DNA of 32,000 nt from Candidatus Electronema halotolerans (GCA_942493095.1 OW818675.1:2550001-2582000), one strand, 5' to 3'; shown: positions 2 to 22,918, numbered from the stretch's first letter. Made by a program: numbers and translations. Notes: a model not told the origin generated them from the sequence alone.

Positions 2-2314
2 GTTGCCATATCTCAGGAATTGCTGGAGGGGATTTCCTTCATCCAAACTGATGAGCATTTTTTAGCTTCCATTGATCTGATCAACAACTATCAGGATAAA
101 GACAACTACAACGCTGTCCTGCTCGATGAAGAGAAAAAAATTATCAACAGGCAGCTGCTCACCCGGGTTAAACTCTCTTTAAATCACCGCATAGTGCTGT
201 ATGACAGAGATGAGGAGCTGGTCGCCTTTGTTGAACAGGAGCAAGATGGATATCGTCTTTATTTTGTTTCATACTCAGGTGGGCGGAAAACCTTGTGCAG
301 CCGCCGTGAAGATCAGAAATTGTATGTCTGTGATCCTTTTCCTGCAACTCTGCCTGTTGATCTTCATCATCACTCCTATTACTCACATGCTTCGGCCAGG
401 CAGGGCACGCTCACCTATCATATAGACAACGGGCATATCAGAATAAGTTCCCACTTGAGCATCTTTGATGATGCGGATGAGAATATATTGGCGCATATTG
501 AGATGTCACATATTTTTCATGACGAATATTTCACAAACTTGTCTAAGGATATGGGACTTGTGATCAAAGGAAGCACGGACCGGAAAGACCATGTCAATGT
601 GAATTTTCTATCGGCGACAACCAGTTTGGAGAATTTTTCCATTGCTGACGGGGAGGCATCCTGTTTCAGCACTGCAAAAATTGACACCTTGGACGGCGCT
701 TTTTTCTACCATGTCGCGCTCAATAAAGAAAAGCTGCTCGTCTCATTAAAGAAGAACAGAGAACAGCTTTATATTATTGTCAGCATTGTTACTGCTCTGG
801 TTCTGGTGCTGCTTCACTTTGTCTTTGCTAAAACCCTTGTCAAGCCGCTGGAACTGCTCATGGAGCAAATCCGCAAAATCGAAGCTCAGGATTACACACC
901 ATCGACCTTGGCGCAAACTGGTGATGAACTGGAAACTATATCAAAAAACATCAACCAGTTGGCCAGCACCATCCAAGACCGCGAAGATGCCCTGCTGGCC
1001 TCGCAGAAAAACTTGGAGTATCTTTCGCATCATGATCCATTGACCGGTCTGCCCAACCGCCGTCTGTTCATGTCGCATTTGCAGCAGGCCCAAGGGCAGG
1101 AAGCCAGACTTGCGGTGCTCTTTCTGGACCTTGATGAATTCAAACAGATCAACGACACCTTGGGTCATGATGTCGGCGACCAGCTTCTTGTGGAAGTATC
1201 TTTGCGGCTGGCTGCGGTGATGCGTTCTTCAGGCATCTTGGCCCGCATCGGCGGGGATGAGTTCAATATTCTGCTGGAGCATGTTGCATCTGCTCATGAG
1301 GTCGAGGCGGCAGCTGAAGCGCTGCTGGCGGTGTTCAGGAAACCTTTTGCCTGCGCCGGACATGAGCTGAACACCAGTGTCAGCATTGGGGCGGCGTTCC
1401 ATCCTGATGACGGTGAAGATGCAGTCACCTTGATCAGACATGCCGACATGGCCATGTATCAGGCCAAGGCTACAGGCGGCAATGGCTGCTGCTTTTTCTC
1501 TGCTGACTTGGCAGCCCGGGTGCAGCAGCGCATCGACCGGATCAACGCCCTGAAAAGGGCACTGCTCCATCTTGATGAATTTCACCTGCTGCATCAGCCG
1601 AAAGTGTCCCTGCTGACCGGCAGGGTGGAAGGAATGGAGGCATTGATACGCTGGCAGAGTGCCAGCTTGGGCTTTATGCGGCCTGATCAGTTCATTCCGC
1701 TGGCGGAAGAGACCGGTTTGATCATTCCCTTGGGTGCATGGGTGGCGGAACAGGCCTTCAGAGATTTTCTGACCTTGCAAAAAGCAGGCTGTCCAATTCG
1801 CAAGGTCAGCATCAACCTTTCAGCTGTTCAACTCCTGAACAGCGATATCGTTGCCATGATTACAAAAGCTGTCAGCAGAACCGGCATCCTGCCGGAGCAG
1901 ATTGAACTGGAGATAACCGAAAGCTGCATTGCCATCAATGAGAAGAAAATTATTCAGACACTCAGGCAGCTCCGCAGCATGAAGATTGAGCTGGCCATAG
2001 ATGACTTCGGCACGGGCTATTCCTCAATGAGTTATCTCCAGAAGCTCCCAGTCACAAGGTTGAAAATTGATAAATCATTTGTCGATCATATTCAGACTTC
2101 CAAAGAGAACCAAGCCATTATTCAGGCAATCATCACCTTGGCCAAAACCTTGAGACTGGCTGTCACCGCAGAAGGGGTTGAAAATGAAGAACAGCTGGAG
2201 TTTTTGAAGCAGGCAGGATGTGATGAAGTGCAGGGGTATTTTTATGCTAAACCGCTTTCCTTGGAAGCATTTAAGAACTTTTCCCGAAACATGGCCGAAT
2301 CGTCTGTGCAGTGA
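2..2314 (+). CDS. Membrane-bound c-di-GMP turnover protein with sensor, TM, HAMP, GGDEF and EAL domains. Probably 5'-truncated by the window edge.
   Basis: The reading frame is open back to base 2; the track start at 20 is a TTG. One TM segment (LYIIVSIVTALVLVLLHFVFA) is followed by a HAMP-like helix. The GGDEF motif is intact (RIGGDEFNILL). EAL signatures are present (EALIRW, DDFGTGYSS, AEGVENEEQ). Confidence 0.9.
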   Translation, partial: VAISQELLEGISFIQTDEHFLASIDLINNYQDKDNYNAVLLDEEKKIINRQLLTRVKLSLNHRIVLYDRDEELVAFVEQEQDGYRLYFVSYSGGRKTLCSRREDQKLYVCDPFPATLPVDLHHHSYYSHASARQGTLTYHIDNGHIRISSHLSIFDDADENILAHIEMSHIFHDEYFTNLSKDMGLVIKGSTDRKDHVNVNFLSATTSLENFSIADGEASCFSTAKIDTLDGAFFYHVALNKEKLLVSLKKNREQLYIIVSIVTALVLVLLHFVFAKTLVKPLELLMEQIRKIEAQDYTPSTLAQTGDELETISKNINQLASTIQDREDALLASQKNLEYLSHHDPLTGLPNRRLFMSHLQQAQGQEARLAVLFLDLDEFKQINDTLGHDVGDQLLVEVSLRLAAVMRSSGILARIGGDEFNILLEHVASAHEVEAAAEALLAVFRKPFACAGHELNTSVSIGAAFHPDDGEDAVTLIRHADMAMYQAKATGGNGCCFFSADLAARVQQRIDRINALKRALLHLDEFHLLHQPKVSLLTGRVEGMEALIRWQSASLGFMRPDQFIPLAEETGLIIPLGAWVAEQAFRDFLTLQKAGCPIRKVSINLSAVQLLNSDIVAMITKAVSRTGILPEQIELEITESCIAINEKKIIQTLRQLRSMKIELAIDDFGTGYSSMSYLQKLPVTRLKIDKSFVDHIQTSKENQAIIQAIITLAKTLRLAVTAEGVENEEQLEFLKQAGCDEVQGYFYAKPLSLEAFKNFSRNMAESSVQ

Positions 2315-2317
2315 AAT

Positions 2318-2345
2318 GACCGCTGCCAGACAAAGGACAGCGGTC
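2318..2345. terminator. Hairpin shared by two convergent genes; possible bidirectional terminator.
   Basis: GACCGCTG (2318-2325) pairs with CAGCGGTC (2338-2345) around a 12-nt loop. It lies 3 nt after the GGDEF-EAL stop and 12 nt after the stop of the minus-strand small ORF. There is no strong U-tract on either side. Confidence 0.4.
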
Positions 2346-2357
2346 TGCTCCGATCTT

Positions 2358-2483
2358 TTACAAGGCTTGGCTGCCTGTGGCCGACACTGCTGCCTTGATG
2401 TATGGGTCGTCGCAAGACGGAGCGGCGCAGAAAAAAAATACCGCTGCGGCCAAAAAAAGTGCATAAACAATACGTTTTTTCAT
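2358..2483 (-). CDS. Small (41 aa) signal-peptide or lipoprotein-like protein. It is not in the ORF track because it is under 60 aa.
   Basis: My translation is MKKRIVYALFLAAAVFFFCAAPSCDDPYIKAAVSATGSQAL. GGAGG (2490-2494, minus strand) sits 6 nt upstream of the ATG at 2483. A near-consensus promoter lies upstream on the same strand: TTGACA at 2573-2568, an 18-nt spacer, then TATTAT at 2549-2544. The hairpin at 2318-2345 follows the TAA stop. The N-terminus has a basic, hydrophobic signal-peptide shape with Cys residues. Confidence 0.55.
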   Translation of the reverse strand: MKKRIVYALFLAAAVFFFCAAPSCDDPYIKAAVSATGSQAL

Positions 2484-2696
2484 TGCGAGCCTCCTTCTAT
2501 CTGAACAGAACGAAAAAATAACAAAAAACAACGATTATAGCATATAATACCATTTATTTTTCAACTATGTCAAGAAACAAATCCTCTGCCAGCAGGTGTG
2601 CAATCTTTTGATCATTTTGATTTTGCTCAACAAACGATTCATGCCCATGCAGAACAGCTTCCTGCTCCTTCCTGACTCCCTCCTTGGCTTAGAACA

Positions 2697-5600
2697 ATGA
2701 AAAAGCTTCTTGCCGCCTTTGCCGCCAACACGGTATTTGCCAATATTGTCCTGCTGCTGATTCTGGTCGGCGGCGGCCTGTCCCTCAGCTCCATGCTCCG
2801 GGAAACCTTTCCAGAGTTCTCGGTTGACAAGATTTCCATCCGCGTCGCCTATCCCGGCGCAGACCCGGAAGAGGTGGAGGAAGGCATTGTTCTCAAAATT
2901 GAGGAGGCCTTGGAGGGTCTTGAGGGGGTTAAGGAATACACAACCACTGCTGCCGAGAACATGGGCAGCGCAATGGTGGATGTGCTGGAGGGCAGCGATG
3001 TCAGCGAGGTGCTGGACGATGTCAAATCCAAGATTGATGCCATTTCCACCTTTCCGGTTGATGCGGAAAAGCCGGTGGTCACAGAAGTGACCATGCGCCG
3101 CTCGGTGAGCATGCTCTCTCTGTCCGGCCCGATGGCGGAAAAGCAGCTCAAGGTTTTGGCCGAGCAGCTCAAGGAGGAAATCCGAGCCTTGGACGGCATC
3201 TCGCAGGTGGAGCTGTTCGGCACACGGGACTATGAAATTTCCATTGAAGTCTCGGAGGAGCAGCTCCGCCGCTACGGCATCAGCTTGGCGCAGGTTGCCG
3301 AGGCAGTGCGCAGCTCAAGCCTCAACCTGCACGGCGGCACCATCCGCACCCAAGGCGAGGAAATCCGGGTGCGGACTGTGGGCCGCAAATATACGGGCAA
3401 GGAGCTGGCCGAGATTGTCGTCTTGGCAAATCAGGCGGGCGAGCTTATCAAGCTGGGCGGCATTGCCACTATCCGGGACGGATTCACAGAGGATATGATC
3501 AGCTCCGAAGTTGACGGCGAAGCAGCAGCCTTTATCATGGTCTTTAAGACCACTGAGGAGGACTCAATAAAGATTGCCGACACCGTTAAAAAATACATGG
3601 AAGAGAAGCAGTCCCAGCTGCCGCCGGGTGTGCATTTGCAGGAATTTTACGATGGCACCAAAGAGCTGCGCTCGCGCATCAGCCTGCTGACGAAAAATGG
3701 TTTTATGGGACTGGTCTTGGTATTTTTTCTGCTCTGGCTCTTCCTTGACCTGCGGCTCTCCTTCTGGGCCGGCATGGGCATTCCCATTTCCCTGTCCGGG
3801 GCCATGTTCATTCTCTGGTGGATGGGCGAGACTCTGAACATGATTTCGCTTTTCGGCTTCATCATGGTGCTGGGCATTGTCGTGGATGATGCGATTGTGG
3901 TGGGAGAGTCCATTTATTTTCACCGCACCTCAGGCAAGCCGCCTCTGAAAGCGGCAGTGGATGGGGTTGCCGAAGTGGCCATGCCGGTTGTCGCGGCTGT
4001 CACCACCACGATTGTCGCCTTTGTGCCGCTCTCGTTCATTGGCGGCATCATGGGCAAGTTCATTGCGATCATGCCGGTGGTGGTCAACTCCAGTCTTTTG
4101 GTCTCGCTCTGGGAATCCCTTTTCCTGCTGCCCGCCCATCTCAGCCATCTGCCTGATCTGAGTCAGCGCAAACCAAGCCGCTCGCCCTTGAGCTGGCTCC
4201 AGCGCGGCACCCAAGCCAGTTTGGAATGGTTCATCAGCAAACTTTATATGCCTTTTTTAGCTGCGGCCCTGAACTGGCGCTACATTTTCCTTGCCTGTTC
4301 CATCAGCGCCCTGATTTTGGCCGTGGGGCTGATCCAAGCCGGAGTAGTCAAGTTTCAAGTTTTTCCCAAGTTAGACAGCTTTCTCATCACCTCGACTGTG
4401 GAATTCCCCGACGGCACTCCGGCCGCCGTGACCCAGCAGGCGGTTGACCGCTTGGAGCAGGCCTTTCTCAAAGTGGCGGAACGAAACAAGAATGCGGATG
4501 GCAGGTCAATTATTGAGAAACGGCTCAAATTGGTGGGCCAGAGTCTGGGCGGCGAGCAGGGCGGCAACGGGCCGCATCTCGGCTCGGTGCAGTTCATTCT
4601 TCTGCCTGCTGAGGAACGCAGCATCCACTCCAATGACCTGCTGGTTGCTTGGGAGCAGGAAGTTGGCTCGATTGCCGGAGCCAGATCGCTGACCTTCAGC
4701 GGCGAGCGGCACGGCCCGGGCGGCTCGGAAATAGAAGTCTGGCTTCAGGGCAGCAAAATGGATGATCTGCTGGCTGCCGCCGGGCAGCTCAAGGAAAAGC
4801 TCCGCACCTTCAGCGGCGTGCTGCAAATTCGTTCTGATTTCTCGCCCGGCAAGAATGAGTTCCGACTCTCCCTAAAGCCAGAGGCCAGAGCCTTGGGCCT
4901 GACAGTCGAGGATTTGGCCCGGCAGGTCAATGCCGGTTTTTATGGCCGGGAAGCCCTGCGGATTCAACGAGGCCAGGATGACATCCGGGTCAAGGTGCGC
5001 TACACGCAGACGGAGCGGAGCAGCGTGACCGATTTTCAGGAGATGCGCATCCGCACGGCTGCCGGGCAGGAAATTCCTCTGCTTTCAGTTGCGGATATTG
5101 ACTTCGGCCCCGGCTTCTCGACCATCACCCGCACCAACGGCCTGCGCCGGGTGGCGGTGACAGCGGAAGTGGATGCCAAGCGGGCCAATGCCCAAGAGGT
5201 CTTTGCCGCCCTGTCTGCTGAGAACGGCTTTTTTCAGCAGCTTGAGGCCCAGCATCCGGGCCTGCACATCTCCATGCAGGGCGAAAAAAAGAACATGCGG
5301 GAATCGTTCTCCTCAATTGAAATCAGCTTCCCCCTGACCGTGCTGGGCATCTTTGTGATTATCGCCACCATCTTCCGCTCATACATCCAGCCGCTTGTCA
5401 TCTTGGTCAGCATTCCCTTCGGCATCATCGGGGCAATCCTCAGCCATCTGCTCATGGGCTATGATTTGTCGATGATGTCCATGTTCGGCATTGTCGCCTT
5501 GACCGGCGTGGTGGTCAATGACGCGATAGTCCTGATTGAGCGGATCAACGAGAATCTGGCTGAAGGCATGTCCTTTCACAATGCCATCATCAAGGGAGGA

Positions 5601-5891
5601 GCGCGCCGCTTCCGGGCCATCCTCCTGACCTCAGTGTCAACCGTGGGCGGCCTGGCCCCGCTGATCATGGAAAAGGACATGCAGGCTCAGTTTCTTATTC
5701 CTATGGCCCTCTCGCTCGCAGGCGGAGTTATCGGCTCCACTATCCTGACCTTGGTCCTGATTCCCAGCCTGTTGGTGATTGTCAACGATGGCCGCAGGCT
5801 GACCGGTTGGCTGCGCACCGGCATCTGGCTGGAGCGCGAGGCCTTGGAGCCTGCCGCCGCCCGGCAGGTGGAGAGCAGAATGTTTGACTGA
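2697..5891 (+). CDS. RND efflux transporter permease of the AcrB/AcrD/AcrF family (1064 aa).
   Basis: Length and architecture are typical of RND permeases. There is an N-terminal TM helix, two large periplasmic loops and two blocks of about 6 TM helices. The RND-like motif GFIMVLGIVVDDAIVV is present and is repeated in the second half (GIVALTGVVVNDAIVLIE). Confidence 0.9.
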   Translation: MKKLLAAFAANTVFANIVLLLILVGGGLSLSSMLRETFPEFSVDKISIRVAYPGADPEEVEEGIVLKIEEALEGLEGVKEYTTTAAENMGSAMVDVLEGSDVSEVLDDVKSKIDAISTFPVDAEKPVVTEVTMRRSVSMLSLSGPMAEKQLKVLAEQLKEEIRALDGISQVELFGTRDYEISIEVSEEQLRRYGISLAQVAEAVRSSSLNLHGGTIRTQGEEIRVRTVGRKYTGKELAEIVVLANQAGELIKLGGIATIRDGFTEDMISSEVDGEAAAFIMVFKTTEEDSIKIADTVKKYMEEKQSQLPPGVHLQEFYDGTKELRSRISLLTKNGFMGLVLVFFLLWLFLDLRLSFWAGMGIPISLSGAMFILWWMGETLNMISLFGFIMVLGIVVDDAIVVGESIYFHRTSGKPPLKAAVDGVAEVAMPVVAAVTTTIVAFVPLSFIGGIMGKFIAIMPVVVNSSLLVSLWESLFLLPAHLSHLPDLSQRKPSRSPLSWLQRGTQASLEWFISKLYMPFLAAALNWRYIFLACSISALILAVGLIQAGVVKFQVFPKLDSFLITSTVEFPDGTPAAVTQQAVDRLEQAFLKVAERNKNADGRSIIEKRLKLVGQSLGGEQGGNGPHLGSVQFILLPAEERSIHSNDLLVAWEQEVGSIAGARSLTFSGERHGPGGSEIEVWLQGSKMDDLLAAAGQLKEKLRTFSGVLQIRSDFSPGKNEFRLSLKPEARALGLTVEDLARQVNAGFYGREALRIQRGQDDIRVKVRYTQTERSSVTDFQEMRIRTAAGQEIPLLSVADIDFGPGFSTITRTNGLRRVAVTAEVDAKRANAQEVFAALSAENGFFQQLEAQHPGLHISMQGEKKNMRESFSSIEISFPLTVLGIFVIIATIFRSYIQPLVILVSIPFGIIGAILSHLLMGYDLSMMSMFGIVALTGVVVNDAIVLIERINENLAEGMSFHNAIIKGGARRFRAILLTSVSTVGGLAPLIMEKDMQAQFLIPMALSLAGGVIGSTILTLVLIPSLLVIVNDGRRLTGWLRTGIWLEREALEPAAARQVESRMFD

Positions 5892-5946
5892 GATGCTTGG
5901 CTGAATCTGCGATGCTTCATCGCAAGATGGGCGGACTGTGGTGGGC

Positions 5947-6140
5947 GTGGATTGGTGAATTCAAGTTCCAAGTGTAACTTTTTTTGGTTGCAAGAAAAGG
6001 CAGTTACGGGAGTGTCACAACTTTGCTTTTGTCGTTAACTAAGAGAAAATAATTGAAAATTTACATGAAGTATTCAAAGTGCCAGCCAACCTATGCTTTT
6101 TGGATAACCAAAAAAAGTTGCACTTGCGAGTTGAATCCAC
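5947..6140. repeat. Imperfect inverted-repeat pair of about 35-43 bp flanking an AT-rich core of about 116 bp. Candidate MITE, IS end remnant or large structured element.
   Basis: The left arm is GTGGATTGGTGAATTCAAGTTCCAAGTGTAACTTTTTTTGGTT (5947-5989). The reverse complement of the right arm (6106-6140) is GTGGATTCAACTCGCAAGTGCAACTTTTTTTGGTT. The arms share the outer GTGGATT and the inner CAAGTG(T/C)AACTTTTTTTGGTT. Confidence 0.45.
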
Positions 6141-6271
6141 AACTCACTTTACGGAGTAGTTGTCTCAGTAATGCTAACCAATTGGTATCACATAATTTTT
6201 GATACAGCAACACTCAACAGGGGCATCACCCGATTTTGTCAACCACGGAAAAACTCGGAGAGCCGAAAACC

Positions 6272-9200
6272 ATGTCGATCCATCTGCAAATCAAGCATGT
6301 TGACTCTCAGGACGGCCAGCCGCAATTCGTTGTTGTGCGCGGCAGCGACCTGAAATCTTCGGATTCGGTGACGCTGACCGGGCCGGATCAGACCATTGTT
6401 CCCGGTCGTCCGCACAGCAATTTGCAGCAGGACTTGCGCTGGTATCTGGAGCAATTTCTTGAACTGCCCACAGGCGCGTATCCTGAGCTGGCCGAGCGGG
6501 TGCAGGATACGTTGCAACAATGGGGCCAGGACTGTTTCGAGTCTCTGTTCCAGAAGCAGGCCTATCTCTGGTTTGAGGAGGCCCGCAAAGCGGGTTTGGA
6601 AAACCTGCATCTGAAGATTTCTTCCGATGATCCGCGTGTGCTGGCTTGGCCTTGGGAGGCCCTGCATGACCCGGAAACCGGCACCTTGGCTCATCATTGC
6701 CGGATTGAGCGGCAGATCAGCAAGAATGTGCCAGACCCGCTGCCCTTGCCGGAACATCTGCCCAAAGATCGCATCAACATTCTGCTGGTGATTGCCCGGC
6801 CCCACGGCGACCAAGACGTGGGTTTTCATGCCCTGTCCCGTCCGCTGGTGGAGCTGGCCCGTGCCCAGCAGATGCCGGTGCATATTGACGTGCTCCGCCC
6901 GCCCACCTTTGACCGGCTCCGGCAGCAGCTTCACGACAAGCCCGGTTTTTATCACATTGTCCATTTTGACGGCCACGGCGGTTACGGTGCAACAGAGGAG
7001 CGCATTTCCTCGGACGTTTTCAAAAGTTCGGTTCAAGGCAGGCTGCTTTTTGAAAATGACGAGGCTGAAGCGGCTCCGGTGGAAGCGGCGAAACTCAGCG
7101 AGCTGCTGGCTGAATACCGCATTCCGATCATGGTGCTCAATGCCTGCCAGTCGGCCCGGATTGACGATCAGGCCGAAGATGCCTTTGCCTCAGTAGCGGC
7201 GGCCCTGCTCAAGGCCGGTATCCGCAGCGTGGTAGCAATGGGCCACAGCCTCTATGTCAGCGGGGCGCAGCAGTTCGTGCCCGCCTTTTATCGCCGCCTG
7301 CTGGAGAGCGCCAATCCAGCCGAGGCAGTCCGGGCCGGGCGGCAGGAGATGCTGGCTCATGATCAGCGGCCCTGTCTGTTGGGCGAATATCCCTTGCAGG
7401 ACTGGCTGGTGCCGGTGCTCTATCAGCAGATGCAGACGGATGAAACTGTGCTGGCCCGACCGGTTGCAGCGACTCCGGCGGGCAAATTCACTCTGGCGGA
7501 AGAGGCCGCACCAGACCCTCTCCCGGAGCAAGCCCGGCAGTTGGGCGATGACGGTTTTATCGGGCGGCAGCAGGCTGTGCAGCAGTTGGAACGCGCCCGG
7601 CTGCAACAAGAGCAGGCAGCTTTCCTGATCCACGGCATGGCCGGTGCAGGCAAGACCACGCTGGCAAAAGGTTTTCTCCACTGGCTGCGGGATACGGGCG
7701 GCTTGGAGCAGCAGGTTTTCTGGTTCAGTTTTGACGAAATTCGCTCTGCCGAGTTTGTCATCAACGAGTTGGTGGACAGCATTTTCGGCACAGATGCTCG
7801 TGCGGCTGCGCTGGAACAGAAGCTGGCCGGGTTGATCAAGGTTTTTCGCGAGCATCCGTTTCTGCTGATCTGGGACAACTTCGAGTCCGCTTCCGGGCTT
7901 GCAGGCACGGAAGTCCGGCCCATGCTTTCCGAGGAAGATCGGGGCCTGCTCAAGGAGCTGCTGGCCAAGCTGCGGGGCGGCAAGACCAAGGTGCTGATCA
8001 CCAGCCGCTCAACGGAGAAATGGCTAAGTACCGGGGAATGCTTCCGCCTGCCGCTGTCCGGCCTGCACGGGGAAGAGCTGTGGCAGTTCTGCAATCAGGT
8101 GCTGCGTAATCTGGGCCTGAAGGTCAAGCGGGATGACGAGGATTTCCGCGCTTTGATTGAGGAATTAGACGGCAATCCCTTGGCCCTGCGCACGGTGCTG
8201 CTGCAATTGCAGGAGAAGAAGCCTGCGCACTTGCTGGCTGCGCTGCGCAAGAAATTTGCTCTGCTGGAGGGGGACGAATCGAGCAAGCGGATTTTGGCGG
8301 CCTTGGCTGTGCTGGATCAAGGTTTGCCGGAGGAATATGGCCCGGTGTTGCAGTTGATCGGGTTGCATCGGCGGTTTGTGGATATGGATTATCTTGCCAA
8401 GTACATGCTGCACACCGAGGAAATCACCGAGCCGATTCAGAACTGCTTTGCCCTGCTGGAAACTGCGGGCCTGCTCTCTGCGCTGGGCAGCAACATTTTC
8501 CAGATGCACCCGGCCTTGCAGAGCTATCTTGCCCAGCAGCATCCGGCTGAAGAAGCCTTGCAGCGGGCCTTTGTTGATTTCATGGGCCGCTTTGCCGACC
8601 AGCTTGCCCCAAAAGAACTGCATGAACAGCGCGTTCCTTTTGCCCTGCATCAGGGTAATTTTCATCATGCTTTGGACTTGGCGCAGCAGCTTGACGATAT
8701 GGACTGGGCTGTTGCAGCCCTGACCCAGAGTTTGGCTGCTTATTTCCAAAACAGCCGCGACTATGCCGGAGCAGCACAGCTCTTTGCCGATCTTGCCGAG
8801 CATCGGCACCAAAAGAACGATCATGAGGGCGAGGCAGGAGCTTATCACCAATTGGGGAAAATCGCCCAAGAACAGCGGGATTTTGCCGCTGCGGAACAAT
8901 GGTATAAGAAATCGCTGGCGATTAAGGAAAAACAAGGCAACGAGCACGGCGCGGCGACCACCTATCATAATTTAGGAGCAATCGCCCAGGAGCAGCGGGA
9001 TTTTGCCGCTGCTGAACAATGGTATAAGAAATCGCTGGCGATTAAGGAAAAACAAGGCAACGAGCACGGCGCGGCGACCACCTATCACCAATTGGGGATA
9101 ATCGCCGAGGAGCAGCGGGATTTTGCCGCTGCTGAACAATGGTATAAGAAATCGCTGGCGATTAAGGAAAAACAAGGCAACGAGCACGGCGCGGCGACCA

Positions 9201-10060
9201 CCTATCACCAATTGGGGATAATCGCCGAGGAGCAGCGGGATTTTGCCGCTGCTGAACAATGGTATAAGAAATCGCTGGCTATCGAAGAAAAACAAGGCAA
9301 CGAGCACGGCGCGGCAAGTTCGTATCACCAATTGGGGATAATCGCCGAGGAGCAGCGGGATTTTGCCGCTGCGGAACAATGGTATAAGAAATCGCTGGCG
9401 ATTAAGGAAAAACAAGGCGACGAGCACGGCGCGGCGACCACCTATCATAATTTAGGAGCAATCGCCCAAGAACAGCGGGATTTTGCCGCTGCGGAACAAT
9501 GGTATAAGAAATCGCTGGCGATTAAGGAAAAACAAGGCGACGAGCACGGCGCGGCGACCACCTATCACCAATTGGGGATGATCGCCCAGAAGCAGCGGGA
9601 TTTTGCCGCTGCGGAACAATGGTATAAGAAATCGCTGGCTATCTTTGAAAAACAAGGCAACGAGCACGGCGCGGCAAGTTCGTATCACCAATTGGGGATA
9701 ATCGCCGAGGAGCAGCGGGATTTTGCCGCTGCGGAACAATGGTATAAGAAATCGCTGGCTATCGAAGAAAAACAAGGCAACGAGCACGGCGCGGCGACCA
9801 CCTATGCCCAATTAGGCTTATTGTCTGGCAGGATGGAACAGCAGGCTGATGCTGGCGGGTGGTTGCTCAAGGCTATTCAGAATTTTGCTGCCAGTAATGA
9901 TCAGCATAACACGATTCGGGCAATGGTAGATTATGTCCAGAATCTCCAATCCGCTGACCCGGCAACCCAAACCCTGCTCCGGCAAAAATGGCAGCAGGCC
10001 GGACTGGACAAAATCATCACCCTTGAGCAATTGGAGCAACAACTCAATGACCACACCTGA
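6272..10060 (+). CDS. CHAT (caspase-like) protease fused to an NB-ARC-type STAND NTPase and a TPR repeat array; about 1262 aa from the ATG at 6272.
   Basis: CHAT dyad: HFDGHG (His codon 6974-6976) and LNACQS (Cys codon 7145-7147), plus the PWE-type motif WPWEAL. Walker A is GMAGAGKTTLA (from 7634) and Walker B is FLLIWDN. VLITSR and GNPLAL are NB-ARC/AP-ATPase signatures. At least 8 near-identical 40-aa TPR units follow. I prefer the ATG at 6272, which has GGAGAG 9 nt upstream, over the track's TTG at 6236. Confidence 0.9.
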   Translation: MSIHLQIKHVDSQDGQPQFVVVRGSDLKSSDSVTLTGPDQTIVPGRPHSNLQQDLRWYLEQFLELPTGAYPELAERVQDTLQQWGQDCFESLFQKQAYLWFEEARKAGLENLHLKISSDDPRVLAWPWEALHDPETGTLAHHCRIERQISKNVPDPLPLPEHLPKDRINILLVIARPHGDQDVGFHALSRPLVELARAQQMPVHIDVLRPPTFDRLRQQLHDKPGFYHIVHFDGHGGYGATEERISSDVFKSSVQGRLLFENDEAEAAPVEAAKLSELLAEYRIPIMVLNACQSARIDDQAEDAFASVAAALLKAGIRSVVAMGHSLYVSGAQQFVPAFYRRLLESANPAEAVRAGRQEMLAHDQRPCLLGEYPLQDWLVPVLYQQMQTDETVLARPVAATPAGKFTLAEEAAPDPLPEQARQLGDDGFIGRQQAVQQLERARLQQEQAAFLIHGMAGAGKTTLAKGFLHWLRDTGGLEQQVFWFSFDEIRSAEFVINELVDSIFGTDARAAALEQKLAGLIKVFREHPFLLIWDNFESASGLAGTEVRPMLSEEDRGLLKELLAKLRGGKTKVLITSRSTEKWLSTGECFRLPLSGLHGEELWQFCNQVLRNLGLKVKRDDEDFRALIEELDGNPLALRTVLLQLQEKKPAHLLAALRKKFALLEGDESSKRILAALAVLDQGLPEEYGPVLQLIGLHRRFVDMDYLAKYMLHTEEITEPIQNCFALLETAGLLSALGSNIFQMHPALQSYLAQQHPAEEALQRAFVDFMGRFADQLAPKELHEQRVPFALHQGNFHHALDLAQQLDDMDWAVAALTQSLAAYFQNSRDYAGAAQLFADLAEHRHQKNDHEGEAGAYHQLGKIAQEQRDFAAAEQWYKKSLAIKEKQGNEHGAATTYHNLGAIAQEQRDFAAAEQWYKKSLAIKEKQGNEHGAATTYHQLGIIAEEQRDFAAAEQWYKKSLAIKEKQGNEHGAATTYHQLGIIAEEQRDFAAAEQWYKKSLAIEEKQGNEHGAASSYHQLGIIAEEQRDFAAAEQWYKKSLAIKEKQGDEHGAATTYHNLGAIAQEQRDFAAAEQWYKKSLAIKEKQGDEHGAATTYHQLGMIAQKQRDFAAAEQWYKKSLAIFEKQGNEHGAASSYHQLGIIAEEQRDFAAAEQWYKKSLAIEEKQGNEHGAATTYAQLGLLSGRMEQQADAGGWLLKAIQNFAASNDQHNTIRAMVDYVQNLQSADPATQTLLRQKWQQAGLDKIITLEQLEQQLNDHT
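8841..9810 (+). repeat. Tandem 120-bp (40-codon) in-frame repeats encoding the TPR array. There are 8 near-identical units plus degenerate flanking units.
   Basis: The string ttttgccgct recurs at 8881, 9001, 9121, 9241, 9361, 9481, 9601 and 9721. By direct comparison, 8988..9279 is perfectly 120-periodic. The unit consensus is YHQLGIIAEEQRDFAAAEQWYKKSLAIKEKQGNEHGAATT. Confidence 0.95.
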
Positions 10061-10442
10061 ACAAGACCGCCGCATCCTCCACACCCTGGCCGCCGCTGAC
10101 CCGGATTTTGCCGCGTTTCAGGAAAAATTCCCCGTCGCCGCTCCTGCCGACTTGGCCCCGGACATCATTCAGGATACGCTGGTCGTCCTCAATCAAGACC
10201 CGCAGCAGGCCGCTGTCATCAATGCCCTGCGCAATCAGGACCAAACCTGCAAGAGCTTTGCCGGCGGCACGGAAATCACTGCTCTGGTCGCTGTCGCCTT
10301 TGTCCTCCGTACCCACATCAAGGTCGAACGCACCAGCTCCGGCAAATGGCGTTTCCTGATCGAGCATAAACCGGCGGATTCCAAACTGCTCACGGCCCTG
10401 CTCGCCAAGCTGGAGCAGCTTTTTAGCGACAGCAGGACGTGA
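10047..10442 (+). CDS. 131-aa protein of unknown function, translationally coupled to the CHAT-NB-ARC-TPR gene.
   Basis: The ATG at 10047 is preceded by GGAG (10033-10036) and overlaps the upstream gene's last 14 nt (stop at 10058-10060). Sequence from the track (residue 39 onward) begins MTTPEQDRRILHTLAAADPDF and ends LLAKLEQLFSDSRT. I recognise no motif in it. Codon usage and composition look like those of the neighbouring genes. Confidence 0.6.
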   Translation: MTTPEQDRRILHTLAAADPDFAAFQEKFPVAAPADLAPDIIQDTLVVLNQDPQQAAVINALRNQDQTCKSFAGGTEITALVAVAFVLRTHIKVERTSSGKWRFLIEHKPADSKLLTALLAKLEQLFSDSRT

Positions 10443-10565
10443 AGGCAGCATCCAGCACTCAGTGTGATTGCCTGCATCGTCCTGATCTGTCGGCAGCTTT
10501 AAGTTTCGGCGTACTTTGGCCTAAACGCTCTCAGAGGACGGGCAGCGACTGCAAGGGAGACCATC

Positions 10566-10594
10566 AAAAAAACCCCGCTGCAAAGGAGCGGGGT
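10566..10594 (-). terminator. Rho-independent terminator for the minus-strand OMP gene. It may also stop the plus-strand CHAT operon.
   Basis: ACCCCGCT (10572-10579) pairs with AGCGGGGT (10587-10594) around a 7-nt loop. The A-run at 10566-10572 reads as a U-tract on the minus strand. It lies about 30 nt downstream of the OMP stop at 10626. Confidence 0.75.
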
Positions 10595-10625
10595 CTTAAC
10601 TGCGGCAGATGCCGATTGAGGCTGA

Positions 10626-11597
10626 TCAGAACGAATATCTCACTGCGGCATTGAAGGAGCTGGTTTTCACATCATTGAACAGGGTATGATCGTCATTGCC
10701 CAGATCAAGCGCGGATGTCCGCATGTATTCATAGCCCACGTCCATGCCGATGTTCTGGGTGAATTCATAGGCCACGCCTGCCCCGACCTTGTAGGCGAAA
10801 CCGGTGTCGCTGTCCTCGTCATCATTGACAAAGGTGATTTCCGCCTTGCCTGCGCCCATGCCTGCCATGCCATAAACGGACAGGGCATTGCAGTTTGCGC
10901 CGAAAATGCCGAAAGTAGGCACTGGCAGATGATAAAAGCCGTTCAGCATCAGCGTCTTGATGGTGATGTCTGACAGTCCTGGCGAGGAGAAATCAGCCGT
11001 CTGCATGGCCATCTCGCCTTCAGCCCGGAAATTGCCGAAGCGTCGGCCTCCGGCCAGACCTGCCCCATAGCCGGTGTCTGTCTCGCCCCTGAAGCCGTAT
11101 TCAGCTTTGTCAACATCCATGGAACCGCTCCAGACCATTCTGGCGATGCCCTTGACATACCAAGGGTTATACTGATCATCGTGCGTCTTGCGGGTCTTGA
11201 GGGCATTGATCTCATTGTCGTGCCGATCAAGCCGGGTCGAGTTGGCTCTGATCTCGCTGTCCTGACGGGCCTGATCCGACTGAAGCGCATCAATTTCACT
11301 GTCTTGGCGGGCCTGATCCGCTTGGAGGCTGTTGATTTGATCATCCTGCCGGGTCTGGCTGGAGTTCAGGCCGTTGATCTGACCATCCTGCCGCGCCTGG
11401 CTGGAATTCAGGCCGTTGATCTGCTCGTCTTGGCGGGCTTGGCTTGAATTCAGCATGTCAATCTGATCCTGACAGTCGTCAGGGCAGCCCGGCCCTGTCG
11501 GCCCTTTGGTCGGCACATATTTGGACCCGGCCACGCTGTAGCCTGCAGCCGCTAACAGCAGGACTGAAGCCGCTGCCGCGCTTACTATTTTTTTCAT
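10626..11597 (-). CDS. Outer-membrane protein with a signal peptide, an Lpp-like 14-residue-repeat coiled coil and a C-terminal OmpA-like/OMP_b-brl beta-barrel.
   Basis: The start at 11597 (MKKIVSAAAASVLLLAAAGYSVAG) has GGGGAG upstream; the track's longer start at 11693 is unlikely. There are seven 14-aa repeats (INGLNSSQARQDxQ type). The C-terminal half alternates Gly and aromatic residues and ends in ...AAVRYSF, a terminal Phe typical of OMPs. Confidence 0.8.
   Translation of the reverse strand: MKKIVSAAAASVLLLAAAGYSVAGSKYVPTKGPTGPGCPDDCQDQIDMLNSSQARQDEQINGLNSSQARQDGQINGLNSSQTRQDDQINSLQADQARQDSEIDALQSDQARQDSEIRANSTRLDRHDNEINALKTRKTHDDQYNPWYVKGIARMVWSGSMDVDKAEYGFRGETDTGYGAGLAGGRRFGNFRAEGEMAMQTADFSSPGLSDITIKTLMLNGFYHLPVPTFGIFGANCNALSVYGMAGMGAGKAEITFVNDDEDSDTGFAYKVGAGVAYEFTQNIGMDVGYEYMRTSALDLGNDDHTLFNDVKTSSFNAAVRYSF
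11184..11462 (-). repeat. In-frame 42-bp tandem repeats encoding the coiled-coil segment of the OMP.
   Basis: The protein units are IDMLNSSQARQDEQ, INGLNSSQARQDGQ, INGLNSSQTRQDDQ, INSLQADQARQDSE, IDALQSDQARQDSE, IRANSTRLDRHDNE and INALKTRKTHDDQ. The DNA shows recurring ggccgttgatct and ctggctgga blocks. Confidence 0.85.
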
Positions 11598-11811
11598 GAT
11601 CTCCCCTTTTGTTCTGGTTGTTCTGTCCGCGCCGGATGGAGCTTCTTCTCTGTAATCATAATGGAACAGGGATTGAAAAGCAAGAGCAAACATGGCAGTG
11701 CAAATTTTTGCATCAGTCGTGAAAATGCCTTCCCTGACAGGAGATTTCTTATGTCAGGAACTGGTCGGCAAGTCGATTTCCGCCTGTTTTTCCCTTGTTT
11801 CGGAACAATTT

Positions 11812-14854: not shown

Positions 14855-17800
14855 TTACTTCGCACACCATTCATACGCATTCTGGAACATCCTCAGCCAC
14901 GGCGAGACCTCCAGCCCGTGCATCTCTCTCGGCAGCCAATGGCACTGCCAGGGCAGGAAGGCCCGCTCCGGGTGCGGCATCAGGGCGAGATGGCGGCCAT
15001 CGGGCGAGCACAGCCCGGCAAAGCCGTCCGGCGAGCCGTTGGGATTGAAGGGATACTGCTCGGTTGCCGCGCCGCTGTCGTCGGCATAGACCAAGGGCAC
15101 CAGCCGCTGCCCGATCACCTCAGCCCGCACTGCCGTGTCTGGGAAATGCAGCAAGCCCTCGCCGTGGGCCACGTGAATGCCGAAGACGAGGCCGCTCATG
15201 CCGCGCAGCATCATGGCCGGGCTGTCGGTCACGCGCACGGTCGTCCAGCGGGACTCAAAGCGGCCCGATGTGTTGTGGATGAAGCGCGGCTGTGCCTCTG
15301 CCTGCAAGCCCTGCCAAGGCACCCAGCCGAGCAGGCCGAAGAGCTGGCAGCCGTTGCAGATGCCGAGGGTGAAGGTGTCGGGCCGCTGGAAGAAGGCATC
15401 AAACATGGCCCGCAGCCGCTCGTTGAAGAGGATGGTTGCGGCCCAGCCTTTGGCCGACTCCGGCACGTCGGCGTAGGAGAAGCCCCCGACTGCCGCAAGT
15501 CCCCGGAAGCCGTCCAATGTCACCCGCCCGGCGAGCAGGTCGGTCATGGTGATGTCCCACGGCTCAAAGCCCGCAGCGTAGAAGGCGGAACTCATCTCGC
15601 GGTCAGAGTTGGAACCCTCATCGCGGAGAATGGCGACCTTTGGCTTGCTCGTCGCAGTCAGTACGACCTTGGGCGAAGGCTGGGGCGTAAAAGGCAGATG
15701 GTACGCTGGAGCGGTGCGGTCGAAGATGCTCTGCCGCTCCGCCTCGGCACAGGCCGGATTCACTTGCAGGCGTTCAAGCTGATAGCTGGTCTTCTCCCAC
15801 TCCTGCCGCAGGACGCGCATGTCCTCATCCAGCACCCGCTCACCGTTGTGCCGGATGCGGACTTGCTTCTCGGCCAGCGTAGTTCCCAGCAGCGCGCAAG
15901 GCACCTCAGCCACGGCCAGTAGCTGCCTGATATGCTCAAGCTGCTCCTGCCTGCATTCCAGCACCAAGCCTAGCTCTTCAGCGAACAGGGCCGGTATCGC
16001 TCCGGCGGCTTCGTCCTCCAAAGCAAGCTCCAAGCCGCAGTTGCCTGCAAAGGCCATCTCCAGCACGGTGGTGATCAGGCCGCCGTCCGAACGGTCATGC
16101 CCGGACAAGATCAGGTTGTGGTCGATCAGCTCCTGCACCGCCGCGAATGCTTGGCGGAGCAGCACCGAGTCGTCCATGTCCGGGCTTGCATCGCCGAGGC
16201 TGCCAAGGGTCTGGGCCAAGGCCGAGCCGCCCAGTCGCGCTTTGCCCGGAGCGAGATCAAGCAGGAGCAGAGCCGAACTTGGCTCCTTGATATCCGGCGT
16301 GACCACCTTGCGAATGTCGCTCATGGCCGCATAAGCGGAAATGACCAGCTCGCGGGGTGACTTCACTGTCTCGCTGCCGACCTTGGTCGCCATGGAGAGC
16401 GAATCCTTGCCGCCGTCAACCGCCATGCCGGTGGCGATCATCGCATCGCGCATGGCCCGCGCCGCATCGTTCAGGGCCGCACCTTCACCCGCCAGCTTAG
16501 GTGCCCACATCCAGTTTGCCGAGCACTTGACCTGCTCCGGGTCGTCAATCTTAGCCCAGACAAGATTTGTCCATGCCTCGCCGACAGCCATGCGCGCCCC
16601 TGCTGCCGGGTCAAGCAACATCTTGATCGGCTGCTCGCCAATGGCCGTGGCAATGCCGGTCAGACCACAATGCGACTGGGCGACCACGGCCACATCGCCC
16701 ACGGTGAGCTGGAGCGGGCCGCAGCACTGCTGCTGGGCAATCAGGCCGGTGACAGAGCGGTCAACCTTGTTGGTGAGGAAGCGTTTCGAGCCGACCGAGA
16801 CAAGGCGGAGGACGTTGCGGAGGGCATCGCGCACGGATGATGGAGAATGTAGGGGCGAAAAATTTTTCGCCCCTACGGACATGCGGTTATCCGTGAACGT
16901 CTTCTGCGGGATATGCCCCAGCACCTCCTTCAGCTCCACATCCACCGGGGTGCTGTTGTCCTGCTCGTCCGAGACCACAAAGCGCAGGTCGCCGGTGACT
17001 TCGCCCAGCACCTCGCAGGCCACCTTCTCGCGCTCGCATAAGGCGAGGAATTGCGCGATGTTCTCCGGCCTGATCAGCAGGCCGTTGCGCTCCTGATACT
17101 CAGCCACGTAGATTTCCAGCACCGACATGGTGGGGTCGCCGACGCGTATCTTGCGGATTTCGATGCGCCCGCCAGAGTGCTCGACCAGCTCCTTGAGTAC
17201 ATTGGCCGGGCCGCCCGCGCCCTGATCGTGGATGACCTCGATCAGCGTCCTGCCGCCCATCTCATTGCAGGCCCGGATGACCCGGTTCATCTTCTGCTCC
17301 ATCTCCGCGTCGCCGCGCTGCACCGCGTTGAAGTCCAGCTCCGCCGCGTTCTCGCCCTGAAGCATGGACGAGGCCGCACCGCCGCCAAAGCCGACCCGGT
17401 AGGCTGGTCCGCCCACCTGCACGATCAGCATCCCCTGCGCCGCCTGCTCCTTCTTAATATGACGGTCGTCAATCTGGCCGATGCCGCCGGTGAACATGAT
17501 CGGCTTGAGATAGGCCCAGCGTTCGCCGCCCTCCACGCGCAGGTCAAAGGAACGGGTGAAGCCCTGAATCAGCGGCTCGCCGAACTTGTTGCCATAGTCG
17601 GACGCGCCATTGCTGGCCTCGATCTCAATGGTCAGGGCTGAGGCTAAGTTCGATGGGCAGGGATGGTGCTGCTCCCAAGGCAGTTCATAACCGGGAATGT
17701 GCAGACTGCCGACGCAATAGCCAGCTGTGCCTGCCATGACAAAGCCGCCCTTGCCCGTGCCCTGCACGTCGCGGATGCGGCCACCAGTGCCAGTCTCCGC

Positions 17801-18655
17801 GCCGGGGAATGGAGCCACGCCGGTGGGGAAGTTGTGGGTCTCAGCCGTCAGCAGTGGATGATAGCGGACATCCACCGCCCGCAGCGGCGAGGGCTGGCCG
17901 GGCTGCTCCGGCTGCAAGGTAGTAATATCATGCCCGGCAACCACGCTGGAGTTGTCGCCAAAAGCCACCAGCGAGCCTTTCGGATTGGCCTTGAGCGTGG
18001 CCTGCACCACATCAAAGAGCGTGCCGTCCTGCTCTGCGCCGTCCACCACCTGCCTGCCCCGGAAGAAGCCGTGCCGCGAGTGCTCCGAGTTGGCGTTGTT
18101 GAGGTCCATGATCTCAACAATGGTCGGGTTGCGCTGGTGCTTGCCGACAAAGTAGTCGTAGTAGAACTGGCGGTCGCGCTCGTCCATCGAGATGCCGGGC
18201 AGGTTGAGCAGCGCGTCCGGCCCTTTGCCGAGCAGATCAACCTCATAGACCGGCTCCGGCGTGATGCCGGTCTCAAAGGTGGTCAGCGGATGCGCGTAGT
18301 GGCACTCGGTCATCCGGTCGTGGTGCGCAGCGATGAAGGCGGCCATGTCCTTGTCCTCCGGCACGACATAAACGCGGGAACGCTCGGCGCGGGTGACGCA
18401 GTCCAAGCCGGTCGCTCGGCAGATCGAGACAAGGTTGGATGACCAAGCAGTGGCGAAGTTCAGGCGCGGCCCGACTTCAACCACACGCTCGCCGGTCAGC
18501 ACCGGTTCAAGGGAGACGGTCTCGGCAATGAAGCCGTCCGCCAGCAGCAGGCGCAGGCGGTGCAGCTCTTCGTCAGTCAGGGCGCGGGTGGATTCTATGT
18601 TGAAGCAATAGGCGCGGGCCGCGTCAAGGCGGCGGTGCAGGCGGGTGATAGGCAT
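14855..18655 (-). CDS. purL: Phosphoribosylformylglycinamidine synthase, large single-chain form (1266 aa).
   Basis: Full-length single-chain PurL architecture. The C-terminal glutaminase domain has the catalytic-Cys context LGICNGCQLF and HGEG. The FGAM synthetase core is typical. Confidence 0.95.
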   Translation of the reverse strand: MPITRLHRRLDAARAYCFNIESTRALTDEELHRLRLLLADGFIAETVSLEPVLTGERVVEVGPRLNFATAWSSNLVSICRATGLDCVTRAERSRVYVVPEDKDMAAFIAAHHDRMTECHYAHPLTTFETGITPEPVYEVDLLGKGPDALLNLPGISMDERDRQFYYDYFVGKHQRNPTIVEIMDLNNANSEHSRHGFFRGRQVVDGAEQDGTLFDVVQATLKANPKGSLVAFGDNSSVVAGHDITTLQPEQPGQPSPLRAVDVRYHPLLTAETHNFPTGVAPFPGAETGTGGRIRDVQGTGKGGFVMAGTAGYCVGSLHIPGYELPWEQHHPCPSNLASALTIEIEASNGASDYGNKFGEPLIQGFTRSFDLRVEGGERWAYLKPIMFTGGIGQIDDRHIKKEQAAQGMLIVQVGGPAYRVGFGGGAASSMLQGENAAELDFNAVQRGDAEMEQKMNRVIRACNEMGGRTLIEVIHDQGAGGPANVLKELVEHSGGRIEIRKIRVGDPTMSVLEIYVAEYQERNGLLIRPENIAQFLALCEREKVACEVLGEVTGDLRFVVSDEQDNSTPVDVELKEVLGHIPQKTFTDNRMSVGAKNFSPLHSPSSVRDALRNVLRLVSVGSKRFLTNKVDRSVTGLIAQQQCCGPLQLTVGDVAVVAQSHCGLTGIATAIGEQPIKMLLDPAAGARMAVGEAWTNLVWAKIDDPEQVKCSANWMWAPKLAGEGAALNDAARAMRDAMIATGMAVDGGKDSLSMATKVGSETVKSPRELVISAYAAMSDIRKVVTPDIKEPSSALLLLDLAPGKARLGGSALAQTLGSLGDASPDMDDSVLLRQAFAAVQELIDHNLILSGHDRSDGGLITTVLEMAFAGNCGLELALEDEAAGAIPALFAEELGLVLECRQEQLEHIRQLLAVAEVPCALLGTTLAEKQVRIRHNGERVLDEDMRVLRQEWEKTSYQLERLQVNPACAEAERQSIFDRTAPAYHLPFTPQPSPKVVLTATSKPKVAILRDEGSNSDREMSSAFYAAGFEPWDITMTDLLAGRVTLDGFRGLAAVGGFSYADVPESAKGWAATILFNERLRAMFDAFFQRPDTFTLGICNGCQLFGLLGWVPWQGLQAEAQPRFIHNTSGRFESRWTTVRVTDSPAMMLRGMSGLVFGIHVAHGEGLLHFPDTAVRAEVIGQRLVPLVYADDSGAATEQYPFNPNGSPDGFAGLCSPDGRHLALMPHPERAFLPWQCHWLPREMHGLEVSPWLRMFQNAYEWCAK
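16849..16876. repeat. Perfect 28-bp palindrome inside the purL coding sequence.
   Basis: GTAGGGGCGAAAAATTTTTCGCCCCTAC equals its own reverse complement. It is translated within purL as ...SVGAKNFSPLHS... and in the opposite-strand frame as ...GEKFFAPT... Confidence 0.95.
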
Positions 18656-19482: not shown

Positions 19483-19512
19483 TTGACATGTCTGCGGAAT
19501 TGCCGGTACGAT
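19483..19512 (+). promoter_or_regulatory. Sigma70-like promoter candidate for the vWA-XpaC-SBP-TelA operon.
   Basis: TTGACA (19483-19488), an 18-nt spacer, then TACGAT (19507-19512). It lies about 50 nt upstream of the ATG at 19566. Confidence 0.35.
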
Positions 19513-19565
19513 GGAGCCAGCAGACTGTCCTGATTCAGCCCTTCATCACCTCCGGGAGAATGCGC

Positions 19566-21769: not shown

Positions 21770-21787
21770 ACCCGCAAGGAGATGAAT

Positions 21788-22888: not shown

Positions 22889-22918
22889 GCTGCGCCCCAT
22901 TGACAGGAGGATAGGATA

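Follow-up and report, generated by a model that had tools for sequence, protein, structure and literature searches.

The window analysed here, a stretch of 32,000 nucleotides from Candidatus Electronema halotolerans (GCA_942493095.1, OW818675.1:2550001-2582000), contains a gene for a STAND (NLR-like) protein with CHAT, NACHT/NB-ARC and tetratricopeptide repeat (TPR) domains, the C-terminal part of which is built from eight near-identical 120-bp TPR units. We consider it probable that, within this NLR-like STAND protein, the array serves as the TPR solenoid that senses the ligand, that it belongs to the class of repeats whose internal conservation is high (HIC), and that blocks of sequence have been reassorted among its units. 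A first-pass annotation of the same DNA, made from the sequence alone, had pointed to the array as a recently expanded, diversifying sensor in a conflict system.

Anatomy of the repeat array

Tandem Repeats Finder reported one strong array in the window (8843..9813, period 120, 8.1 copies, 90% matches, 0% indels, score 1567). When the eight units were cut in register from 8843 (Table 1) they differed pairwise at 2-22 of 120 nt, with a mean nucleotide identity of 91.0% and a mean pairwise protein identity of 0.90 over 320 aa, and the 120-nt windows flanking the array showed 72-87 differences from the units. The array is in frame within the open reading frame (ORF) that carries it (6236/6272..10060), and its longest perfectly 120-periodic run is 8988..9279 (172 matches at lag 120).

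Variation among the units is confined to 24 nucleotide columns spread over 15 codons, and amino-acid changes are limited to eight of the 40 unit codons (positions 3, 6, 9, 10, 28, 33, 39 and 40). In translation the variants read HQLGK/HNLGA/HQLGI/HQLGM, AEEQ/AQEQ/AQKQ, IKEK/IEEK/IFEK, QGN/QGD and ATT/ASS, and each unit carries a distinct combination. Two of the variants, GCAAGTTCG (at 9314 and 9674) and CATAATTTAGGAGCA (at 8966 and 9446), are each present in exactly two copies in the window. The first-pass annotation had listed the eight near-identical units, the 8988..9279 periodicity, the two-fold variants and these residues, and every detail proved correct on recomputation; it had placed the array at 8841-9810, an end that falls a few bases inside the degenerate cap unit, the eighth full unit ending at 9802. 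This cap is kept in orthologues as YAVLGLLAG / HQLGQLA.... Phase variation by frameshift was rejected as a role for the array, since the 120-nt unit is a multiple of three inside a coding region and a change in unit number keeps the frame. As a separate observation, units four apart differ at a mean of 7.25 positions as against 8-14 at other offsets, a weak signal that hints at a 480-bp four-unit duplication in the past of 8843..9802.

Architecture of the protein

The ORF opens with a TTG at 6236 (1274 aa), and the ATG at 6272 agrees with the deposited protein; the N-terminal 848 aa, used as a query, matched 'hypothetical protein GCAAIG_11405' (1262 aa, encoded on a 3.2-Mb contig) of Candidatus Electronema halotolerans with 100% identity and 100% query coverage. 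Pfam gave the domain order CHAT (2.8e-25), then NACHT (1.4e-9) / NB-ARC (2.8e-9), then TPR_12 (1.1e-71), with TPR_10 also matching the TPR region (2e-47). To judge from their sequence, the CHAT His-Cys dyad and the Walker motifs of the window protein are intact (Table 1). The architecture is the tripartite effector-NOD-repeat layout of NLR-like proteins, and the sensor position that had been proposed for the TPR array is borne out by Pfam, which makes it the C-terminal TPR part of a STAND/NLR-like protein.

Predicted fold and placement of the variable residues

An AlphaFold2 model of the protein encoded by 8501..10057 was a regular solenoid with a mean predicted local distance difference test (pLDDT) score of 86.7, and of about 95 across the repeats, in which each unit consists of helix A (residues 34-40 and 1-10), a three-residue turn, helix B (14-31) and a two-residue loop. 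The best Foldseek superpositions were with LGN/Pins TPR domains (template modelling (TM) score 0.82-0.85), and with designed consensus TPRs included the TM range was 0.82-0.86. The best sequence match in the PDB was the TPR domain of KLC1 (phmmer 4e-15), relative to whose repeats each unit has two one-residue deletions. The TPR signature (L7, G8, A20, Y24 and S27) is present in the units, and each has two helices; signature and model together place the array in the TPR superfamily, among the KLC/LGN-like long repeats.

With the signature residues as anchors, the eight variable positions become 2, 3, 6, 9, 12, 13, 31 and 36 in canonical TPR numbering, and six of the eight lie on helix A with i, i+3/4 spacing, that is, on one helix face. 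Magliery and Regan found TPR positions 2, 5, 9, 12, 13, 33 and 34 to be hypervariable and on the concave face, and in HOP co-crystals the peptide is contacted at positions 2, 5, 6, 9, 12 and 13 (PMC1261162). The variable positions of the window array include five of these six canonical contact positions (2, 6, 9, 12 and 13; hypergeometric P = 4.7e-4). By homology to canonical TPRs, the variable residues are thus predicted to lie mostly on the concave ligand-binding surface.

Concerted evolution and exchange among units

Unit number differs between the cable-bacterium orthologues. The window array has 8 units (91% internal nucleotide identity), that of Electrothrix sp. YB6 has 5 (70%), that of Ca. 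Electrothrix laxa 6 (84%), that of E. marina 2 (98-99%) and that of E. gigas 11 (66%). The nearest neighbour of every window unit is another unit of the same array, at 94-98% nucleotide identity, and mean nucleotide identity is 0.91 within the window array compared with 0.71-0.84 to the orthologous arrays of other species. The four-gamete test was failed by 42 of the 153 pairs of informative sites (minimum number of recombination events, Rm >= 2, that is, at least two), and segments have therefore been exchanged between units. Because unit numbers differ, nearest neighbours lie within the array and the four-gamete test fails, these data support concerted evolution together with exchange among units. 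The first-pass annotation had anticipated both the variability in copy number, which is found here between species, and the exchange among cassettes.

The variants move as multi-nucleotide haplotypes (for example CAT-AAT-TTA-GGA-GCA, GCT-ATC-GAA/TTT and GCA-AGT-TCG). A nearest-neighbour test for clustering of the variable nucleotide columns was uninformative (P = 0.44); the clustering is visible as these haplotype blocks. The scaffold has been homogenised recently, and the variant blocks are old, predating the homogenisation. The proposal of a recent expansion therefore holds for the homogenised scaffold and fails for the variants, whose blocks are common to the sister lineage and whose residue alternatives are found again in a gammaproteobacterial homologue. 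A diversity-generating retroelement (DGR) is an unlikely source of the variants: no reverse transcriptase was found among the ORFs scanned (no dedicated search was made), and the variants are shared multi-nucleotide blocks and not adenine-directed.

In the 32 invariant codons the non-synonymous difference (pN) is 0 and the synonymous difference (pS) is 0.16, and the repeat scaffold is under strong purifying selection. No strain variants came to light when metagenome contigs were scanned for exact copies of the array/cap junction, and an exact protein look-up in the contig index was also empty. A protein-database search with the array alone yielded 177 candidates, all of <=560 aa, and did not recover the window protein itself, so that it is uninformative on paralogues in the same genome.

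The same positions vary across the family

A 40-aa period was found in all 120 of the closest homologues, with 1-14 units per protein and an internal identity that ranges continuously from 0.2 to 0.9; the window protein has the most homogeneous array of the 120. Variation within arrays, taken over the 37 whose internal identity is 60-89%, was greatest at unit positions 28, 6, 39, 9, 36, 10 and 33, and six of these seven also vary in the window array (P = 4.8e-5). The 535 units taken from 88 arrays keep a conserved consensus, and in these units the residue alphabets at the variable positions are restricted, the main residues being I/R/M at unit position 6, Q/E at 9, E/K at 10, K/F/E at 28, N/D at 33 and S/I/L at 39.

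An independent array of the same kind is present in the gammaproteobacterium Rhabdochromatium marinum (NRRS01000016.1, L006 8547..9688; 9.5 copies of 120 bp, 91% matches), in a homologue that is only 57% identical to the window protein in its N-terminal part. It varies at the unit positions that vary in the window and with the same alternatives (E/Q, E/K, K/E/F/L and N/D).

Selection, ancestry and the case for a sensor

Several of these results weigh against a ligand-sensing array with reassorted blocks. The concave groove, which the first-pass annotation had suggested as the place of the variable positions, accommodates five of the eight, at canonical contact positions; unit position 28, late in helix B and the most variable position of the family, and unit position 33, in the loop, have no face assignment and are not placed on the concave surface. 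The ratio of non-synonymous to synonymous change (dN/dS) for the whole unit is 0.22, and even at the eight variable codons pN (0.27) is lower than pS (0.52), a comparison to which eight recombining units lend little power; these values do not demonstrate diversifying selection, and the diversifying behaviour that had been expected of the array finds no support in them. Several haplotypes, synonymous states included, are common to the array of the sister lineage, which comes from an independent metagenome, and the restricted alphabet recurs across phyla. If a small number of functional unit types is being kept up, old blocks and a restricted alphabet are expected at least as much as they are in an arms race without end. 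Short-read polishing or a population consensus could also have made the assignment of variants to near-identical units partly artefactual. The flanking genes in the window are housekeeping genes, as they are in Nitrosomonas, and PADLOC-DB 2.0 returned no defence family, its sole matches being to the generic 'TPR' model (PDLC01169, 1.6e-17) and, weakly, to two others inside the repeats; on both counts the role in a conflict system that the earlier reading had assigned to the protein was not shown. A putative conflict or immune role for the window protein is read from its domain architecture.

A neutral origin has to be weighed against the same data. On this account a very stable, consensus-like TPR module, held under strong purifying selection, has undergone tandem duplication and unequal recombination without adaptive effect, and the differences among units are ancestral leftovers. 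The coincidence of these differences with ligand-contact positions (P = 4.7e-4) and with family-hypervariable positions (P = 4.8e-5), in place of a spread over the surface, is hard to accommodate in this way, as is the fact that homogenisation arose independently in distant lineages and spared the same positions. The account is, however, in keeping with the conserved consensus of the 535 units from 88 arrays, with pN = 0 in 32 of the 40 codons and an overall dN/dS of 0.22, with variants that are ancient and common to other lineages, and with the continuous range of internal identity in the family (0.2 to 0.9); we give it an appreciable, if minor, chance of being correct.

For a ligand-sensing solenoid, which we favour, the following sequence of events can be proposed. 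The CHAT-STAND-TPR protein belongs to a cable bacterium, a filamentous and multicellular host. Its 120-bp units would undergo gene conversion and unequal crossing-over, which would keep the scaffold near-identical within a lineage and change unit number between lineages, and differences would persist at a few positions, mostly on the exposed face of helix A that is predicted to line the concave binding groove. Old multi-nucleotide blocks from a small family-wide alphabet, and not new mutations, would be reassorted among the units, and we propose that the choice, order and number of unit types would in this way tune the specificity. If the protein works as characterised STAND/NLR proteins do, a ligand in the groove would lead to NTP-dependent oligomerisation and so to activation of the CHAT protease, for which a translationally coupled 131-aa partner would be a candidate substrate, effector or regulator. 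What the analysis shows is the architecture with its intact catalytic motifs, the anatomy of the repeat, concerted evolution, mosaicism, unit numbers that differ between species, and variable positions that coincide with those hypervariable in the family and with canonical ligand contacts; the ligand-binding role, the mechanism of activation, an immune or allorecognition function and any role of the partner are what we infer.

A conserved partner gene and the neighbourhood of the module

The partner gene overlaps the end of the STAND gene (Table 1). It is found directly downstream in four other cable-bacterium loci, at 74-78% identity, its conservation among cable bacteria is 74-92%, and its counterpart at that position in Rhabdochromatium marinum shares 45% identity with it. 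Since the partner is kept beside the STAND gene, the unit of inheritance is a two-gene module. A 143-aa gene without a Pfam match occupies the partner's position in Nitrosomonas aestuarii, the likeness being one of position and size only. The 60 homologues of the partner that were found included none with a Pfam domain (0/60), nothing useful was obtained for the protein itself from Pfam (E <= 10), NCBIfam or PADLOC, and an AlphaFold2 model (30 homologues, pLDDT 70) had no Foldseek match in the PDB below E = 1. A C-terminal motif of the partner, LRTHIK.ER...GKW.F.IEHKPADSKLL, is strongly conserved.

Table 1. Coordinates of the STAND gene, its domains and motifs, the repeat array and the partner gene in the window. 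Motif counts are from 117 full-length homologues.
Feature	Coordinates	Strand	Evidence or remark
1262-aa CHAT / NACHT-NB-ARC / TPR STAND (NLR-like) protein gene	6272..10060	+	ORF list, translation, Pfam
CHAT caspase-like protease domain	6584..7372	+	Pfam CHAT, aa 117-379 of the 1274-aa ORF
CHAT His motif HFDGHG, residue 231	6962..6979	+	kept in 111/117
CHAT Cys motif LNACQS, residue 289	7136..7153	+	kept in 99/117
STAND NTPase module	7586..8242	+	NACHT and NB-ARC both above gathering thresholds; about aa 450-670
Walker A GMAGAGKT	7634..7657	+	kept in 117/117
Walker B FLLIWDN	7859..7879	+	kept in 110/117
Two degenerate helical-hairpin units, N-terminal lead-in of the TPR solenoid	8603..8842	+	72-85/120 nt differ from the units; AlphaFold2 hairpins
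Array of eight near-identical 120-bp (40-aa) TPR units	8843..9802	+	Tandem Repeats Finder, unit comparison, AlphaFold2
Unit starts	8843, 8963, 9083, 9203, 9323, 9443, 9563, 9683	+	cut in register from 8843
Degenerate C-terminal cap unit (YAQLGLLSG...) and helical tail	9803..10057	+	72/120 nt differ from the units
Conserved 131-aa partner gene	10047..10442	+	ATG overlaps the STAND gene stop region; 14-bp overlap, other frame

The window flanks carry GGDEF/EAL, AcrB-type pump, outer-membrane beta-barrel, YjeF, purL, vWA/TelA cluster, MoeA and MurD genes. The beta-barrel gene (10626..11693, -) contains a second tandem repeat, at 11326..11453 (42 bp x 3, 83% matches), and the stretch 19488..24064 (+) encodes a solute-binding/vWA fusion, an XpaC-like protein (Halogen_Hydrol), an unannotated 368-aa protein and TelA, a layout like that of a tellurite-resistance stress module. 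With a GC content of 0.53-0.61 the module does not stand out from the range of its flanks and shows no foreign composition. Between 5700 and 10800 (5700..10800) no sigma-70-like promoter was found, and terminator-like sites were fewer than in shuffled sequence.

Synteny of the module is absent among close relatives, the Electrothrix loci sharing none of the flanking genes of the window. In the sister lineage (L007, 91% aa identity; 3..524 and 613..3570) the C-terminus of purL lies directly upstream of the module, whereas in the window purL (14855..18655, -) is encoded by the other strand, 4.8 kb downstream, and the upstream gene is AcrB; rearrangement has thus affected either the module or its surroundings. 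In Electrothrix sp. YB6 (L009 11888..19474) the module is followed by TumE, RhuM, GmrSD_N, HEPN (MAE_28990/RiboL-PSP) and nucleotidyltransferase (HEPN/MNT) genes, a defence/toxin-antitoxin neighbourhood that is absent from the window.

These neighbourhoods bear on whether the protein is instead a housekeeping or developmental regulator that responds to an endogenous signal, such as filament damage or cell-cell coordination, with its TPRs acting as a scaffold for self proteins. Such a role would suit the housekeeping flanks here and in Nitrosomonas, the lack of a match to known defence families, the restricted and conserved alphabet at the variable positions and the conservation of the partner among cable bacteria (74-92%), but a module that is not syntenic among close relatives, that changes in unit number and sequence between species and that in one orthologue lies beside GmrSD and HEPN genes would not be expected of it. 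The architecture, moreover, is that of tested antiviral STAND proteins (PMC10907252) and of fungal allorecognition NLRs (PMC4986451), and on balance we think a regulator of this kind quite improbable.

A broader extension of the sensor interpretation may also be put forward, in which the locus would be a two-gene immune or kin-recognition module with the 40-residue units as a combinatorial code, a bacterial counterpart of the fungal het/NWD allorecognition receptors, and the 130-143-aa partner would be the protease substrate or a death effector. Ancient unit types would be reassorted by unequal recombination and so set ligand specificity, the proposed alphabet at canonical positions being I/R/M at 9, Q/E at 12, E/K at 13, K/F/E at 31, N/D at 36 and S/I/L at 2. 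The range proposed for this module covers filamentous and aggregate-forming bacteria (cable bacteria, Thiothrix/Thiolinea, Rhabdochromatium, Nitrosomonas and Magnetococcales). We regard this extension as speculative and rather unlikely to hold in full.

Reliability of the assembly

The source sequence is the circular BRK-cMAG, a metagenome-assembled genome (MAG) obtained from Nanopore reads with Flye and then polished with Racon, Medaka and one round of Illumina Racon (PMC10030654). Because the 0.96-kb array is far shorter than Nanopore reads, the eight-unit copy number is probably right. For the true copy number or the distribution of variants to differ from the deposited sequence through an assembly or polishing artefact, the error would have to have arisen in a circular Nanopore (Flye) MAG with an array well below read length, and to have left the ORF intact through the array and a distinct variant combination in every unit; the variant blocks are moreover found independently in another metagenome, and a comparable 9.5-copy array is present on a 67-kb contig of the Rhabdochromatium marinum assembly. 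We therefore hold an artefact to be highly improbable, even with the single round of short-read polishing of the source MAG and the behaviour of the relatives' short-read assemblies (the L007 contig, E. marina and partner contigs of 1-3 kb), which break or may collapse at the array. The assembly hazard raised by the first-pass annotation is thus real for the short-read relatives, and the sequence here comes from a Nanopore-assembled circular MAG.

The L007 contig of the sister lineage ends inside the array, and many contigs with the partner gene are only 1-3 kb long. In L007 the repeat is left abruptly at about 3508, with unrelated sequence for the last 120 nt of the contig, a break that could be a mobile-element insertion or an assembly chimera. 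In the short-read MAG of E. marina (L004 10001..12700) the gene is split over three frames, residues of about 340-459 are missing and the array is down to two units, 99% identical; this copy is either a pseudogene or a collapsed, misassembled short-read locus. In Ca. Electrothrix laxa the annotated 869-aa 'TPR repeat' protein is cut short where an A10 run immediately preceding the array (L001 12549..12558) carries a frameshift, and the array, of six units of which one is 9 nt short, is read on in a different frame; the frameshift is probably a Nanopore homopolymer error rather than the mark of a pseudogene.

Comparison with known systems

Should the array indeed be such a sensor, reshuffling of repeats would rebuild the sensing surface of an NLR-like receptor in cable bacteria. 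Their filaments are centimetre-long and multicellular, so that one infected or foreign cell threatens the whole wire, and fungi use the same evolutionary device for non-self recognition. The theme of NLRs with HIC repeats would then extend to the Desulfobulbaceae, in the form of a compact two-gene module with defined variable positions. On a practical level, short-read MAGs of cable bacteria break or collapse at this gene, and the locus is a convenient marker for strain typing.

The Type III-E Craspase TPR-CHAT also combines TPRs with a CHAT caspase-like protease, which cleaves a co-encoded partner protein. In comparison with the window protein its domain order is reversed, it has no STAND NTPase and a CRISPR effector activates it; the ORFs of the window that were scanned included neither gRAMP nor CRISPR. 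The 42PR class, reportedly described by Marold et al. in Structure in 2015, comprises natural TPR-like repeats with high internal identity and a 42-residue period. The likeness lies in a tandem series, within a bacterial protein, of TPR-like units that are near-identical and of the KLC/TPR_12 type. Assignment of the array to this class was rejected: the window array, free of indels, has a period of 120 nt (40 aa), and the array is structurally closest to LGN/Pins TPRs.

The effector-NTPase-sensor layout of the window protein is common to Avs1-4 and bNACHT, and none of the PADLOC models for Avs or bNACHT matched at E <= 0.01. Avs sensors are not known to be arrays of near-identical units. In antiviral STAND proteins, TPR-like sensors bind phage proteins and so trigger the effector, and STAND sensors diversified by DGRs have been described in multicellular bacteria (PMC10907252). 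The NLR-like proteins of multicellular bacteria, among them some with CHAT effectors, share with the window protein both their architecture and a filamentous or multicellular lifestyle (Koonin & Aravind 2002; Urbach & Ausubel 2017; Dyrka et al. 2020). Bacterial NLRs have WD and TPR repeats with 80-90% internal identity, for which rapid diversification has been proposed (Dyrka et al. 2020, bioRxiv 10.1101/2020.01.06.895854). A limited search of the literature found no analysis of the CHAT-STAND-TPR family, of such proteins in cable bacteria, of the 40-residue unit and its position-specific variation, or of the partner gene.

A close parallel is with fungal NLRs, such as those of the Podospora NWD/HET-E family and the sesB-like/NB-ARC/TPR genes, which have highly internally conserved WD, ANK and TPR repeats with repeat-number polymorphism and concerted evolution, and in whose TPRs the variable or positively selected sites lie on the concave side of a KLC-based model (Paoletti 2007; Dyrka 2014; PMC4986451). 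HIC repeats are defined there as units >=85% identical over >=100 aa (Dyrka 2014, PMC4986451), and the window array, with 0.90 protein identity over 320 aa, falls within this class. The shared features are the tripartite architecture, units >=85% identical, concerted evolution, differences in repeat number and, as predicted here, variable sites on the concave face. Because HIC TPR and WD repeats in fungal and bacterial NLR-like proteins have been published, the array is an instance of an already published repeat style; its architecture and proposed meaning are likewise published, and no new mechanism is revealed. Repeat-number polymorphism was found within species by PCR in Podospora and is found here between species, and positive selection was shown in the fungal cases whereas dN/dS in the window array is 0.22. 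The window protein further differs from the fungal HIC NLRs in being bacterial, in its CHAT effector, in its 40-residue repeat and in its small and ancient alphabet of variants. The departures from the textbook picture are the 40-residue period, the restricted alphabet that crosses phyla and the conserved small partner gene.

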